From Candidatus Kaiserbacteria bacterium (GTDB lineage Bacteria > Patescibacteriota > Minisyncoccia > Phycocordibacterales > UBA2100): DNA of 64,000 nucleotides. The position numbers were made by a program, and so were the translations under genes. The notes beneath the pieces are model-generated. The model was not told the DNA's origin and searched no databases. It saw nothing but the letters and a program-made list of their open reading frames with translations. The stretch covers positions 84,476 to 148,475 of the forward strand of contig JAQBRI010000008.1 in assembly GCA_028286585.1 (NCBI GenBank), in the 5' to 3' direction. Positions 7,884 to 49,495 of the stretch are shown in pieces; the stretch's first letter is position 1, and each line of letters starts with the position of its first letter.

Positions 7884-8233
7884 TCTTCGAGAAGTCGGGT
7901 TTGGCATAAATGCCGCCGCCTGTATTCTCTGCTTTCCTAATAACAATATCACATAATATAAGTATGTAAAATTTGATACGTGTATAAGTAAAAAAATGTG
8001 CTTTTGTCATAAATTGTGTAAAATGTATATACACAACCAATATCGAGCCGAAAGGCAAGTGCCTAAACTATCGAGTAATCGATGGCATGGTGCAAAATCG
8101 CGACAAATGTAGAAAACCCGTTATCAGGGCGTTTGTCGCGTTATGCAGGGAAACTTGCATAGGGCCGCAAGGCCTCCTGGTAGCGGGCTTTATGTTGCCC
8201 AGCTATCAGCATTATCAGTAATGCAAAAAAGCT

Positions 8234-17834: not shown

Positions 17835-18218
17835 TCATTCCGATATATTCAGGCCCACAATTCTTGAAGGATCCAGCGTACTGCCGCCTTGCGGAAACAG
17901 TGTGACCGCCTCTCCCGAGATCGGTGAGAGTAAGAAGAGGCGTCCTTCTTCGGCATCCGAAACATTGTAGATAAGCAGGCTTGCGGAGTAGTCGAGGCGG
18001 TCACTGACATTCCATTCACCACCGTCCTCCATCTTGGCGACCCATTTGAGTGTGATATTGAGATCCCCGCAGTTGTCGGATGGAAAACCGGGGACTGGTT
18101 TACCTTCGGTTACCTCGACGGCGGCGATTTCTCCACGGTAGAGATAGTCTTCACCCTCATTTCGAACTTCGAGCTGACCACCTTTATAACGCTGAAGGTC
18201 TTGGGTAGTTAACTTCAT
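17835..18218 (-). CDS. Hypothetical protein
   Basis: 127-aa ORF. Confidence 0.4.
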   Translation of the reverse strand: MKLTTQDLQRYKGGQLEVRNEGEDYLYRGEIAAVEVTEGKPVPGFPSDNCGDLNITLKWVAKMEDGGEWNVSDRLDYSASLLIYNVSDAEEGRLFLLSPISGEAVTLFPQGGSTLDPSRIVGLNISE

Positions 18219-19228: not shown

Positions 19229-19612
19229 TTAGATATGGGGACCGTCTGGATCTTGGTATTTGATCCAAACCAGAGGCTGAGCAGGATCGAGTTTGACGCC
19301 GTTCGGATCGTCGGCCAACACATCAATGATGTCAAACTTGAGCTGACGAACCACGCTCTTGGTCAGTTTGGCCTTGCGATCAGGATAGCCAATGGTCTCG
19401 ACTTCGAATGAGAAAAGCGCCGACAATTGTGCACCGGGCGGATACATGAGTGGCAAAAAGTCGATGTCTTCGATTCCGAGGGTTGTGGCCTCGGTGCTGG
19501 CTGCATTAGCAACAAGTTTGCGGATAGCGAGGCCGGCCCTTTTGTGATCGAATTTGAGCATAAACATACTGGGCGCCAGATTGACGTCAATGTTCATAAA
19601 AACCTTAAGCAT
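19229..19612 (-). CDS. Hypothetical protein in the GC-rich block
   Basis: A good RBS (AAGGGAGATTT) precedes the ATG; 127 aa. Confidence 0.45.
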   Translation of the reverse strand: MLKVFMNIDVNLAPSMFMLKFDHKRAGLAIRKLVANAASTEATTLGIEDIDFLPLMYPPGAQLSALFSFEVETIGYPDRKAKLTKSVVRQLKFDIIDVLADDPNGVKLDPAQPLVWIKYQDPDGPHI

Positions 19613-19837: not shown

Positions 19838-20323
19838 ATGAGCGACACAAGGACCCGATTGAAAATTCGCAAAATTGCTATTCCAGTCATCGTCGACATT
19901 GGTCGCGACTGGAAACAACTTGTTCGTGCTATGGCACCTGAAACTGGCTCAGAAGTGCCGCAGGAACTCATCTCAAAAGATATTGTTCCTGCACGAAAAG
20001 TCCTACTCGTCAATTTTGGCGAAGATACTTTTAACAATATCGGAGAAGATCATTATCAATCCTGGCATGTCGCCTGGGGTCGCAAAAACGGTCTGCGTCC
20101 AGCAACAGACCGCGAAGTCATGTCGACTGGTTCTGCCGATCTGGAAAGTGATCTCGGCTCGGAACCGGTCGCAATCGTCTTGTTTCAAGTCGAGACGTGG
20201 GGCAATATGCCTTTTGGGCGAACCTTCCAGTTCGCAGGCGGTAGACGCCGTCTCCATTCAGAACTTTTGCTTCTTGGGATGTACCCCAGCTCTTGGTGGT
20301 TTCCGTATGTTCGTGAAGCCTAG
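19838..20323 (+). CDS. Hypothetical protein in the GC-rich block
   Basis: 161 aa from 'MSDTRTRLKI'. Other frames in this GC-rich region are also open. Confidence 0.35.
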   Translation: MSDTRTRLKIRKIAIPVIVDIGRDWKQLVRAMAPETGSEVPQELISKDIVPARKVLLVNFGEDTFNNIGEDHYQSWHVAWGRKNGLRPATDREVMSTGSADLESDLGSEPVAIVLFQVETWGNMPFGRTFQFAGGRRRLHSELLLLGMYPSSWWFPYVREA

Positions 20324-20450
20324 CATCACACCGCCACTTCAAAAGCCACCCTCCGGGGTTCGCTCTGGAGTGGTGGCTTTTTTGTATAATGCACCCTTCA
20401 TTTAAATAAGAATTCGCAAGGATCTTAGCTCTGTACCCGTGTCGCAAGTA

Positions 20451-20479
20451 TTGACAAATAATACATATAATCCTATAAT
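20451..20479 (+). promoter_or_regulatory. Consensus sigma-70 promoter TTGACA-N17-TATAAT
   Basis: Perfect -35 and -10 hexamers with a 17-nt spacer. It reads into the GC-rich unit. Confidence 0.55.
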
Positions 20480-20625
20480 ACTAGCGGGAAATGGGAACTT
20501 CGCATCATGGTAAGCATAGGCATACTTGAATAAAGTTTCTACGGTTACTCCAACAGGAAGGTGAAAGCCAAACTTGTTAGCTAGAAGTCACAACATAGTG
20601 TTGTGATTCTCGCGGAGCCGCCCCC

Positions 20626-20877
20626 ATGACCCAGCATGCAATCGTGGTAGTCCACGCCGCTTCCAACACGGTCATAGTTGGAACCCACTCGTTTACCGAT
20701 GGATTCAAAGTCTCTCGCAGGCAATGGATCATTAGGACAGACGAAGACGCTGTTGCGTATTGTTCATGGCTTACAAACCATGGATTTGCACATCAAAGCG
20801 ACGATTTCCTCGATCGTTGGGTTGAGCGAGGAAGCATTCCGACAATTGGTCTCCCTCGATCAGCGTTTGCGACGTAG
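20626..20877 (+). CDS. Possible small ORF (83 aa) inside the promoter-to-terminator unit. Coding status is uncertain.
   Basis: The region is GC-rich (~50%) with several overlapping frames, and there is no clear RBS. Confidence 0.25.
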   Translation: MTQHAIVVVHAASNTVIVGTHSFTDGFKVSRRQWIIRTDEDAVAYCSWLTNHGFAHQSDDFLDRWVERGSIPTIGLPRSAFAT

Positions 20878-20888
20878 GGGGATCGAAC

Positions 20889-20926
20889 AAAGCCGAACAC
20901 CCCTCTCGGGTAAGTAGGCTTTTTTC
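20889..20926 (+). terminator. Terminator-like repeat element, copy 1 (AAAGCCGAACACCCCTCTCGGGTAAGTAGGCTTTTTT)
   Basis: Outer stem AAAGCC/GGCTTT enclosing inner stem ACCC/GGGT, followed by a T-run. Confidence 0.5.
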
Positions 20927-20961
20927 ATTTTAAATATTATTTATACTGATATACTTACTAG

Positions 20962-21342
20962 ATGAAACTCGATGCAATTGGGGTTGTGAGCAAAGATATT
21001 AAAAAGTCGGTAGCGTTTTATAAGCTGCTTGGTTTTGAATTTGGCGAAGTACCAGACGATGCAATGCATATTGAGGCCAAGCGCCAAAATGATTCTGTAC
21101 GATTCATGATTGATAATTATGAAATGATTAAGGAACATACGGGTATCGATACAGAGCCGTCAAACATGTCTTCGTTTGCAATCTTGTGCGACAATCCAGC
21201 AGATGTTGATTCTGCGGTACAAAAAATAAAAGACGCAGGCTACACAATTGCCAAGGAGCCATGGGATGCGATGTGGGGTCAGCGATATGCCGTTGTGATT
21301 GACCCGGACGGCTACGGAGTCGACTTGTTTGCCACACTCTAA
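20962..21342 (+). CDS. VOC / glyoxalase-bleomycin-resistance family protein
   Basis: The 126-aa protein has a 'MKLDAIGVVSKDIKKSVAFYKLLGF' beta-alpha-beta-beta-beta module. Confidence 0.65.
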   Translation: MKLDAIGVVSKDIKKSVAFYKLLGFEFGEVPDDAMHIEAKRQNDSVRFMIDNYEMIKEHTGIDTEPSNMSSFAILCDNPADVDSAVQKIKDAGYTIAKEPWDAMWGQRYAVVIDPDGYGVDLFATL

Positions 21343-22345: not shown

Positions 22346-22684
22346 ATGCAAATCGATCCAAAAGCTGCACTAATGGCAATCGCCATATGCATACTAATGT
22401 ATATTCTGTCATCTTCTTTAGGCTTCAGGGAGGCAAGGCAAGAACTTAAAATCTTGAGAGTGTTATCAAAAAAAGGGCGGGCAAAGAGTCATGAGATTAT
22501 AAACATCGACCGTAAGATTGGATCTATTGCAATTTATGCTCGTCTCACAAGAATGGAGCAATACGGATTTATAGCTGGAGAAGGTCCATCCAAACCCACG
22601 CAATCTCGCGATCCTACAAAAATATGGTGGATCACAATGCGCGGAGCTACGAGACTAAAATATCTGGAAAAGAATTATAGATAG
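22346..22684 (+). CDS. Membrane-anchored winged-helix (PadR/MarR-like) small protein, paralog A
   Basis: TM helix, then 'QELKILRVLSKKG...W.ITM.G..RLKYLE'. Paralogous to 22831-23172. Confidence 0.5.
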   Translation: MQIDPKAALMAIAICILMYILSSSLGFREARQELKILRVLSKKGRAKSHEIINIDRKIGSIAIYARLTRMEQYGFIAGEGPSKPTQSRDPTKIWWITMRGATRLKYLEKNYR

Positions 22685-22729: not shown

Positions 22730-22766
22730 AAAGCCGAACACCCGCTCTGGGTAAGTAGGCTTTTTT
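22730..22766 (+). terminator. Terminator-like repeat element, copy 2
   Basis: AAAGCCGAACACCCGCTCTGGGTAAGTAGGCTTTTTT. Confidence 0.5.
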
Positions 22767-22798
22767 CAATAGACAGGAGGTAAAATAGTGGTAAGCTG
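22767..22798 (+). repeat. Conserved leader, copy B
   Basis: Identical to the 32-mer at 22282. Confidence 0.5.
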
Positions 22799-22830: not shown

Positions 22831-23172
22831 ATGTCATTTTATCTTGGAATGGGATTCGTGATGATTGTAATAGTCGTCGCGATACTTGTTTGGCTTTCCT
22901 TGTTACATTCTCGGGAGCAAAAGCAGGAACTCAAGATTCTGGCATTGTTGTCAGACCTTGGTCGGCTTAACGGCCTCGAAATGTTTGAGTATGACAACTC
23001 CATTAGTCCTTCGAATCTCTACAAACGTTTATTAAGATTAGAGCAGGACGGAGTTATTTGCGGAGAGAATTTTGTCCACTTACCGGGAACTGCTCTGCCT
23101 GTTAAAAGGAAATTCTGGATTACTATGAAGGGAAACTCCAGGCTTAAGTATCTGGAACTGAACTTTAAGTGA
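22831..23172 (+). CDS. Membrane-anchored winged-helix small protein, paralog B
   Basis: TM helix, then 'QELKILALLSDLG...FWITMKGNSRLKYLE'. Confidence 0.5.
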   Translation: MSFYLGMGFVMIVIVVAILVWLSLLHSREQKQELKILALLSDLGRLNGLEMFEYDNSISPSNLYKRLLRLEQDGVICGENFVHLPGTALPVKRKFWITMKGNSRLKYLELNFK

Positions 23173-23213: not shown

Positions 23214-23255
23214 GAAAGCCGAACACCCCTCTCGGGTAAGTAGGCTTTTTCTTTT
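23214..23255 (+). terminator. Terminator-like repeat element, copy 3
   Basis: AAAGCCGAACACCCCTCTCGGGTAAGTAGGCTTTTTC. Confidence 0.5.
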
Positions 23256-48542: not shown

Positions 48543-48615
48543 GCCGATGTAGCTCAGCTGGTAGAGCGTCTCCATGGTAAGGAGGAGGTCGCCGGTTCGA
48601 TTCCGGCCATCGGCT
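48543..48615 (+). tRNA. tRNA-Thr (anticodon GGU)
   Basis: Acceptor GCCGATG/CATCGGC, anticodon stem TCTCC/GGAGG with loop ATGGTAA, T-loop TTCGATT. Confidence 0.85.
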
Positions 48616-48727
48616 CAACATGTTTAAATAGTGCAGTTAATTGACATACTGCATGATTTGATTTATAATCCGGCCGGTTAGTTCTGGATGCGCAGCAGCA
48701 TCCTTTCTCTTTTAGGGGGCAATTGCA

Positions 48728-49495
48728 ATGAATATTGTTGCGACAATTCGGGCACTTTTGGCACTCGTTGGTCTGCTTACCGTTTCAACCTACGTACGTG
48801 CAGGTGAAGCTCCACAATTTACTTGTGCAGCTTCGGAGTCAATCTGGTCACGCTATCTGGCAGGGCAAGGAGGATTCTGGAATACGCGATCGCCGACAAG
48901 TGTTACGTTCGGGGAATGCAGTCACGTGGAAAGCGGACTTTTCGCCAACTTCACGGTGCTCAAATCGCTCAATGTGACAAAGAAGGAGCCATGGGAAAGC
49001 GAAGTCGATTTTGCAATCGGAAAACGCGGTGCCCTCGGCGCATTTGATTACACTGCCATGGTGCAGTGGTATCGCGTAGACTTGGGTTCCAAATTCCATC
49101 TCGTCAACATTCTCAATGGGAATACCAGTTTGGGCTGGACAACAGCACTAAACGAGCGAACAAAATTGCGCTTGTACGCGGTGGCAGACATCATGTCGCC
49201 ACAGTCGGGACTGGCTGGAGGTGTTGCAACAAGCTTTGCGCTTGGCTCAACACTTACGTTCCAACTCTCGGAGCGCTGGTCGACGTCGACAACGGTCGAG
49301 GCGTGGAAATTCGTCAGCCACGGATTTCTGCAGAACACGAATTGGAATATCAAGGCCATCCAGGGCGTGAAATTCCAAATCAACGATGACTGGTCACTCA
49401 ATGTTTCAGCAATGCTGATGCACGGCAACATCACCGATCGACTTGATCATTCAACCAAGGGCGTAGTGAAGGTAGGATTCACAGCGAAGTTTTGA
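48728..49495 (+). CDS. Secreted hypothetical protein (possibly beta-rich; ends in Phe)
   Basis: Signal peptide; 255 aa; C-terminal '...VKVGFTAKF'. Confidence 0.4.
   Translation: MNIVATIRALLALVGLLTVSTYVRAGEAPQFTCAASESIWSRYLAGQGGFWNTRSPTSVTFGECSHVESGLFANFTVLKSLNVTKKEPWESEVDFAIGKRGALGAFDYTAMVQWYRVDLGSKFHLVNILNGNTSLGWTTALNERTKLRLYAVADIMSPQSGLAGGVATSFALGSTLTFQLSERWSTSTTVEAWKFVSHGFLQNTNWNIKAIQGVKFQINDDWSLNVSAMLMHGNITDRLDHSTKGVVKVGFTAKF

Follow-up and report, generated by a model that had tools for sequence, protein, structure and literature searches.

The locus lies in a window of 64,000 nucleotides (the whole stretch of DNA that was analyzed) and consists of a promoter, a folded leader, a gene for a small protein, and a terminator hairpin (Table 1). 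The perfect TTGACA-N17-TATAAT reported in the first-pass annotation was borne out by a promoter scan, in which it matched at 12 out of 12 positions. The -35 and -10 hexamers are separated by 17 nt, inside the 16 to 18 nt that define a sigma-70 promoter, and the window has two perfect matches of this kind, where dinucleotide shuffles predict 0.01. Transcription would start near 20486 and give a transcript of roughly 440 nt. The upstream open reading frame (ORF) is closed by a separate terminator, so the segment from 20451 to 20926 forms a transcription unit of its own. The unit had also been described as richer in GC than its surroundings, and this holds: the GC content is 0.49 for 20486 to 20926 and 0.50 for the coding sequence (CDS), compared with 0.42 for the whole window.

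Table 1. Features at the locus, with positions counted from the first nucleotide of the window
Feature	Position	Strand	Details
Intrinsic terminator of the upstream ORF (19838-20320)	20341-20383	+	Sequence AAAAGCCACC...GGTGGCTTTTTT; generic terminator-type match to covariance model R1, 12.3 bits
Sigma-70-type promoter	20451-20479	+	-35 TTGACA at 20451-20456, 17-nt spacer, -10 TATAAT at 20474-20479
Structured 5' leader, ~140 nt	20486-20625	+	Minimum free energy, -43.2 kcal/mol; z, -2.96
Short upstream ORF, MGTSHHGKHRHT*	20491-20529	+	Significance uncertain
Anti-Shine-Dalgarno candidate CUUCGC, 5' proximal	20498-20503	+	CUCCGU in L001 and L048
Conserved box CUCCAACAGG	20548-20557	+	Shared by the three close loci; in the window, its CUCC is predicted to pair with the Shine-Dalgarno sequence
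Leader hairpin, 8-bp stem and 3-nt loop, UCACAACA-UAG-UGUUGUGA	20588-20606	+	Just upstream of the Shine-Dalgarno sequence
Shine-Dalgarno sequence GGAG	20614-20617	+	8 nt upstream of the ATG at 20626
CDS of an 83-aa soluble small protein	20626-20877	+	NCBI hypothetical protein JWO50_595, Candidatus Kaiserbacteria MAG
Spurious overlapping 79-aa ORF, other frame	20678-20917	+	Without family match
Intrinsic terminator with sarcin-ricin-type internal loop	20889-20925	+	R1, 69.9 bits
Second copy of the terminator hairpin	22731-22767	+	R1, 62.3 bits (E, 1.6e-12); after gene 22346-22684
Third copy of the terminator hairpin	23216-23252	+	R1, 70.9 bits (E, 1.4e-14); after paralogous gene 22831-23172

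Two overlapping small ORFs without ribosome-binding sites had been noted in the unit. Both ORFs exist, one of 83 aa and one of 79 aa that runs through the terminator, but the 83-aa ORF is preceded by a GGAG Shine-Dalgarno sequence, and the hexamer GCGGAG before its ATG is kept in two close loci from other sequences (L001 and L048). The 79-aa ORF had no family match in our searches, and its tail, EQSRTPLSGK*, is translated terminator. The real gene of L001 and L048 reads in frame into the terminator and stops within the hairpin (...SR[KT]PPG*). The window copy carries an indel in the variable C-terminal tail that moved the real stop 11 nt upstream of the hairpin, and this is why the 79-aa frame is the one that reads through the terminator.

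NCBI holds an exact copy of the 83-aa product and a 54%-identical homologue of 79 aa from another metagenome. From these two sequences we built a family profile and searched it against 1.8 billion cluster representatives, which yielded 47 proteins at an E value of at most 1e-3, 45 of them 56 to 102 aa long. In the family alignment, the proteins begin with a conserved M-[PST]-Q and follow the consensus SFTxG(F)...TExDALAxALWLExHG..EAxxFLDxY. The named sources are metagenome-assembled genomes (MAGs) of Kaiserbacteria, Paceibacterota, Gottesmanbacteria, Moraniibacteriota, "Saccharibacteria," and Patescibacteria, together with two MAGs labeled Bdellovibrionales. When the two-sequence alignment served as the query, no relatives were recovered from genome or metagenome contigs; an 11-sequence subfamily alignment led to 10 related loci. 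The window itself contains a single family copy. These proteins are an uncharacterized small-protein family found mainly in Patescibacteria (CPR), and our literature search found no description of the family or of the terminator motif presented below.

The promoter recurs with the family. L001 has a TTGAC[AT] promoter at the equivalent position and with the same spacing (10 out of 12 in the scan), and in L048 a promoter of the same form, spacing, and place, below the scan threshold, was read by eye. Among the 17 family loci scanned, 12 have a TTGACA promoter scoring at least 10 out of 12 upstream of the gene. In three loci, the -10 hexamer ends 8 nt before the ATG, implying leaderless mRNAs, and in seven the leaders measure 106 to 298 nt.

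AlphaFold2, run with the family alignment, returned a model with a mean pLDDT of 85, with strands at residues 4 to 12, 15 to 22, and 26 to 29 and helices at 39 to 51 and 55 to 68. In the predicted fold, a beta-meander of three strands leads into a TPR-like helical hairpin. No family match was obtained in Pfam, NCBIfam, PHROG, PADLOC, PDB, or BFVD: no member reached the curated cutoffs of the first four, the only signal being subthreshold TPR matches in 3 of 45 members, and the PDB sequence-profile search gave nothing below an E value of 0.18. Tandem helical-hairpin repeats with a repeat signature are lacking, and we rejected classification as a TPR or PPR repeat protein. Members of the family are soluble, mostly slightly acidic (median pI, 6.0), and not hydrophobic. 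The 83-aa product has a GRAVY score of -0.10 and a pI of 6.5 and lacks a hydrophobic segment; these values, and a model made of beta-strands and amphipathic helices, speak against a type I toxin or membrane micropeptide. As a best guess from the slight acidity, the protein is more likely an adaptor that binds other proteins than an enzyme or a nucleic acid binder.

The leader of the window copy folds more stably than all of 200 shuffled sequences (0/200), and the leaders of L001 and L048 (z, -3.5) have a similar architecture. Common to the three leaders are the boxes GGAAnnGGGAA at the 5' end, CU[UC]CG[CU], C[UA]CCAACA[GA]G, CUUGnUAGCnAG, and GCGGAG before the ATG, and it is on these shared boxes that their presumed homology rests. 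An nhmmer profile of the three aligned leaders finds all three again (E, 1e-27 to 1e-46), which is a self-match and not independent evidence, and has no further match within the window. The three leaders also share an 8- to 9-bp hairpin with a U[AG]G loop, which in L001 and L048 keeps its position, stem length, and loop with unrelated stem sequences. Across the three loci, six of seven aligned pairs of this hairpin change type and the sole broken cell is a C-A mismatch in L048, as counted in a hand-anchored alignment of three sequences only. In each of the three close loci, the leader has an AUG close to its 5' end, and the peptides that this AUG opens (12, 33, and 11 codons) are unconserved.

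The Shine-Dalgarno sequence is predicted to be paired in the three loci (P, 0.98 to 0.99; ~0.99 in the window). When the upstream leader was shuffled, mean pairing was 0.59 in the window (~0.6 overall), and the observed value was reached by 3% of the shuffles (1 to 6% across loci). The predicted partner differs between loci. In the window, GGAG pairs with the internal CUCC (P, 0.90 to 0.94), whereas in L001 and L048 the dominant partner is the 5' CUCCGU box (P, 0.93 to 0.99); the RNAalifold consensus of the three leaders pairs the CUUCGC/CUCCGU box with GCGGAG. Occlusion of the Shine-Dalgarno sequence was not seen in the more distant leaders of L073 and L096. Sequestration of the Shine-Dalgarno sequence probably gates translation, a reading to which the predicted pairings lend modest support.

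At the 3' end, the structured terminator described earlier proved to be real: AAAGCCGAACACCCCTCTCGGGTAAGTAGGCTTTTTT forms a hairpin in two tiers (-13.8 kcal/mol) with a T-run behind it. It is built of an outer stem (AAAGCC/GGCUUU), an internal loop with GAA(C) opposite (A)AGUA, an inner stem (ACCC/GGGU), a CUCUC loop, and six U's. This is the stable hairpin directly before a U-tract (T6 in the DNA) that characterizes intrinsic terminators, and a simple terminator scan missed it because of the internal loop. A profile of the three close-locus terminators first revealed the two additional copies in the window. Run unfiltered, covariance model R1 finds exactly three hits in 64 kb at 62 to 71 bits, with ordinary terminators scoring no more than 17 bits. 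The second and third copies each lie ~45 nt past a gene for a membrane-anchored, winged-helix (PadR-like) protein; the two genes are paralogous, with weak Pfam matches to PadR and HTH_24.

Outside the window, the R1 motif directly follows family genes in six independent loci (L001, L048, L073/L074, L096, L099, and L100), whose proteins share only ~30 to 35% identity with the window protein. A related copy without a U-tract, retrieved by a search pattern that itself prescribes some of the pairing, lies in a viral contig (L091) behind a 102-aa ORF that is unrelated. The GAA/AGUA hairpin is present in about one-third of the family loci that we inspected (7 of ~21); the others have plain terminators, and one subfamily has a different conserved 3' element.

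Ten aligned instances share the order outer stem, GAA(N), inner hairpin, (N)AGUA, outer stem, and U-tract. Two strands, C[CU]GAA and AGUAGG, stay invariant as both stems change, with outer stems such as AAAGCC/GGCUUU, ACAGCC/GGCUGU, AAGACC/GGUCUU, and GGAGCC/GGCUCC. Of the aligned cells, 99% are paired, 7 of 10 pairs changed on both sides, and none of 500 shuffles reaches the covariation score, in an alignment that is model fitted and in which related sequences inflate the counts; slid controls collapse. AGUA opposite GAA is the canonical sequence of the sarcin-ricin (loop E, bulged-G) motif (PMC1865062), and in 10 of 10 instances this signature lies invariant between two Watson-Crick helices. 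We rejected a K-turn reading of the internal loop, which has no tandem G-A pairs beside a 3-nt bulge, and also a DNA uptake sequence or REP-like repeat, given that there are only three copies in 64 kb, all sense oriented at gene ends. The hairpin has no match in Rfam, and a 16-base terminator-prefix pattern gave 45 matches in viral contigs, all unrelated on inspection. As far as our searches of Rfam and the literature show, a conserved sarcin-ricin terminator is undescribed. The hairpin appears to have been kept by selection across family members that are ~30 to 35% identical.

The first-pass annotation left the unit as either a structured noncoding RNA (ncRNA) or a horizontally acquired micro-gene. 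As an ncRNA, the ~440-nt transcript would be the functional product and its ORFs accidental, in line with the fold of the whole unit (z, -3.2) and with the clean bracketing by promoter and terminator. The intuition of structured RNA holds for the untranslated regions, where we find the folded leader and the covarying terminator hairpin, but not for the body, since the CDS taken as RNA has no significant excess fold (z, -1.29). Homologous loci encode a conserved protein and differ mainly at third, synonymous positions: differences by codon position number 18/19/33, 24/22/43, and 15/15/31 in the comparisons among the window, L001, and L048, and 1/1/7 in their most conserved block. This pattern had been named beforehand as the mark of a plain small coding sequence; we looked for it and found it, which refutes the ncRNA alternative for the unit body. 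The Shine-Dalgarno sequence and the confident AlphaFold2 model of the product speak for a protein as well, and since leaders are short or missing altogether in several members of the family, what is conserved is the ORF. The absence of RNase P, tmRNA, and signal recognition particle RNA hallmarks was upheld by an Rfam covariance scan of 20300 to 21000, which had no match at the gathering threshold and nothing relevant at E values up to 10 (the best was a nematode snoRNA at an E value of 1). We consider it extremely unlikely that the unit is an ncRNA and are confident, short of certainty, that the gene at 20451 to 20926, with its folded leader and GAA/AGUA terminator, is self-contained and monocistronic and encodes a cytoplasmic protein of 83 residues.

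Of the other alternative, the micro-gene is supported and the acquisition is undemonstrated. A recently acquired mobile cassette, with promoter, leader, ORF, and terminator moving together, would explain the GC excess; these elements do accompany the ORF in three loci of 42 to 58% GC, and the window between 17.8 and 20.9 kb has several GC-rich ORFs without a Pfam or PHROG match. The nearest homologues stand in unrelated neighborhoods. In the window, the neighbors are ORFs without a family match and then a glyoxalase-family gene; L048 lies beside an MmeI-type restriction(-modification) gene and an AAA_13 gene; and more distant family members adjoin TIM/PGK or ClpP/RNase Y genes. No conserved gene neighborhood was found among the family loci compared, and this missing synteny is compatible with mobility but is not proof of it. 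However, we found no flanking direct or inverted repeats (the repeat search gave only short chance pairs), no integrase, and no transposase. Phage or viral homologues were not found either: tblastn against phage genomes gave nothing, and a back-translated VGTHSFTDGF pattern had no match in viral contigs. The CDS exceeds its locus in GC by 3 to 10 points in seven of seven family loci compared, including those among housekeeping genes, and high GC is therefore a family trait and not evidence of recent transfer. The terminator copies of the window are, moreover, closer to each other than to their orthologues, which suggests long residence. Recent arrival as a cassette is thus unlikely in our view.

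In the mechanism that we propose, the consensus sigma-70 promoter would start the ~440-nt transcript near 20486, and the first 140 nt would form a stable multihelix leader with GGAG paired to the conserved CUCC or to the CUUCGC box. The folded leader would probably gate or throttle translation, and the product of the ORF would act as a small protein-binding adaptor. Transcription would end at the hairpin and U-tract. The invariant GAA/AGUA loop lies in the stem of this hairpin, which recurs behind two further small genes 2 kb downstream.

The leader could go beyond gating and be a dedicated translation-on sensor, whether a riboswitch, an RNA thermometer, or a control by the short upstream ORF. 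In favor are its length and fold, its two alternative anti-Shine-Dalgarno boxes, and its conserved hairpin; strongly folded long leaders with different, very stable hairpins occur in other subfamilies too (L049, z of -7.9; L068, z of -5.1); and the more distant L099 and L100 have upstream ORFs of 4 to 5 codons with a strong Shine-Dalgarno sequence. Yet Rfam gave no aptamer match, and in the sequences searched the leader did not recur ahead of any other gene. A leader-box pattern had 12 matches in metagenome contigs, all unrelated, 8 of them being one repeat sequence in three JGI metagenomes. The subfamilies have different leader sequences, three members of the family lack a leader, the upstream ORF peptides are not conserved, and three sequences are too few to define a binding pocket. 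On balance, we find a dedicated sensor rather unlikely and prefer gating by Shine-Dalgarno sequestration as described above. The GAA/AGUA hairpin, for its part, probably does more than terminate, because it is kept across distant family members and reused after two other genes; it may be a 3'-end stabilizer or a docking site for a factor. Were the small protein itself to bind the hairpin of its own mRNA and those of the two winged-helix genes, the three would form an autoregulatory posttranscriptional circuit, but the protein is acidic and many family members lack the hairpin, and we hold this to be very unlikely. More tentatively than the unit itself, we put forward the possibility that the hairpin belongs to an undescribed class of cis-acting 3' RNA elements in Patescibacteria: a sarcin-ricin module set in an intrinsic terminator, coinherited with a lineage-specific small-protein family, shared with other small genes of the same genome, and serving as the docking site of a dedicated mRNA fate factor. 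If this is true, the docking factor would define a small posttranscriptional regulon in organisms about whose gene regulation hardly anything is known.

The gene itself is ordinary, and its hypothetical small protein is already in NCBI. Its analysis removes one false ncRNA candidate and delineates an uncharacterized family, mainly of Patescibacteria, whose near-consensus promoters suggest that these organisms, with their tiny genomes, express it at a high level. Terminator sequences usually drift without constraint. A terminator that stays constant across proteins of ~30% identity and is reused within a genome points to an RNA-recognizing factor or a 3'-end function in CPR bacteria, and covariance model R1 makes this reading directly testable.

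Several known systems resemble parts of this unit. With Shine-Dalgarno-sequestering leaders (riboswitch platforms, RNA thermometers, and ribosomal protein leaders), it shares a long fold and a predicted pairing with an upstream CUCC; unlike them, it matches no recognized aptamer or thermometer family, and its conservation is drawn from three loci. Like intrinsic (Rho-independent) terminators, the 3' hairpin contains GC and is immediately followed by a U-tract at the gene end, in the three window copies and in L001, L048, L073, L096, L099, and L100. Ordinary intrinsic terminators conserve shape, not sequence. The hairpin described here, in contrast, keeps an invariant GAA/AGUA loop and CC/GG closing pairs across distant genomes while its stems covary, and the related copy in L091 departs from intrinsic terminators by having no U-tract. 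The exact strand signature and the flanking Watson-Crick helices are those of the sarcin-ricin/loop E module of 23S and 5S rRNA (PMC1865062), whereas the putative module here, recognized by its sequence signature, sits in the 3' terminator hairpin of an mRNA. Finally, the lineage-specific "genomic unknown" small-protein families of Patescibacteria have been cataloged (PMC9132574), and the present family is like them in being short, without Pfam matches, labeled simply as hypothetical in annotations, and for the most part confined to CPR MAGs. It differs from them in its unusually strong consensus promoters and in the conserved RNA elements of its untranslated regions.

Three genes of the small-protein family (L060, L071 and L077) have a TTGACA-N17 promoter whose -10 hexamer ends 8 nt 5' of the ATG, and a Shine-Dalgarno sequence is absent from these three genes. 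Judged by sequence, their mRNAs are probably leaderless. In contrast, other family members have leaders of 106 to 298 nt. We observed short upstream ORFs in leaders of family genes, including that of L073 and those listed in the table. The ORFs in L099 (MSKR-stop) and L100 (MCRTN-stop), two distant family loci, have strong Shine-Dalgarno sequences of the AGGAGG type. In the window, the predicted transcription start and the beginning of the upstream ORF are 5 nt apart. Among family leaders, the encoded peptides are not conserved. Besides the unit's promoter, the window has just one more perfect TTGACA-N17-TATAAT, which falls between a tRNA (48543-48615) and an ORF (48728-49495).

Directly 5' of the unit, three GC-rich ORFs are scattered among AT-richer genes; none had a Pfam or PHROG match. 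This stretch is possibly variable or acquired. Farther away, the LOOT RNA is matched over its full length just 5' of ORFs at 8143 and 8234, and the match overlaps their start. On the contig of a close homologue (L048), an MmeI-family restriction-modification enzyme and then an AAA_13/SMC-like ATPase come directly after the small gene. That neighborhood is a defense-island-like context, which we did not see at the other loci.

Coordinates of features in the window and at other loci
Feature	Locus	Position (strand)	Detail
Upstream ORF	Window	20491-20529	12 codons
Upstream ORF	L099	60-95	
Upstream ORF	L100	60-105	
GC-rich ORF	Window	17835-18218 (-)	GC 0.50-0.55, 127-161 aa (range of the three)
GC-rich ORF	Window	19229-19612 (-)	
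GC-rich ORF	Window	19838-20320 (+)	
Defense-island-like neighborhood	L048	589-5467	
LOOT RNA (RF03000)	Window	8060-8175 (+)	84.4 bits vs gathering score 46.4
Second perfect promoter	Window	48641-48669 (+)	
Subfamily 3' element	L049	after 875	
Subfamily 3' element	L070	after 2701	
Subfamily 3' element	L069	after 2707	
Subfamily 3' element	L071	after 2701	
Subfamily 3' element	L068	2705-2767	
GAA/AGUA hairpin, second copy	Window	22731-22767	3' of gene 22346-22684
GAA/AGUA hairpin, third copy	Window	23216-23252	3' of gene 22831-23172
Related hairpin	L091	1696-1740	R1 (covariance model) 31.5 bits

A separate subfamily of the same protein family has another conserved 3' element, GGCCGGGAUGYUAUCGCAGUCCUGGGAACAGAAAWUGCRUACG. 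It forms a hairpin whose paired strands are CCGGGA/UCCUGG; in L069 a compensatory change turns them into CCGGGG/CCCUGG. Its conceptual translation reads G-R-D-V-I-A-V-L-G-T-E-N-A-Y, in a frame that varies among loci: L049 has it past the stop and out of frame (+1), and L068 has it as an in-frame fusion (protein P0015). The element could be an RNA element of the 3' UTR, or an extension produced by recoding.

The GAA/AGUA terminator hairpin has two further, near-identical copies in the window, each following one of two tandem paralogues whose product combines an N-terminal transmembrane helix with a PadR-like winged helix. The three window copies are more similar to one another than to their orthologous counterparts in L001 and L048. 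A related hairpin in an IMG/VR viral contig (L091) has the same architecture (outer stem, GAAC, inner UUCG hairpin, UAGUA, outer stem). Since this copy, unlike the terminator copies, lacks a U-tract and sits after an unrelated 102-aa ORF, the GAA/AGUA motif may extend beyond terminators or beyond this small-protein family.
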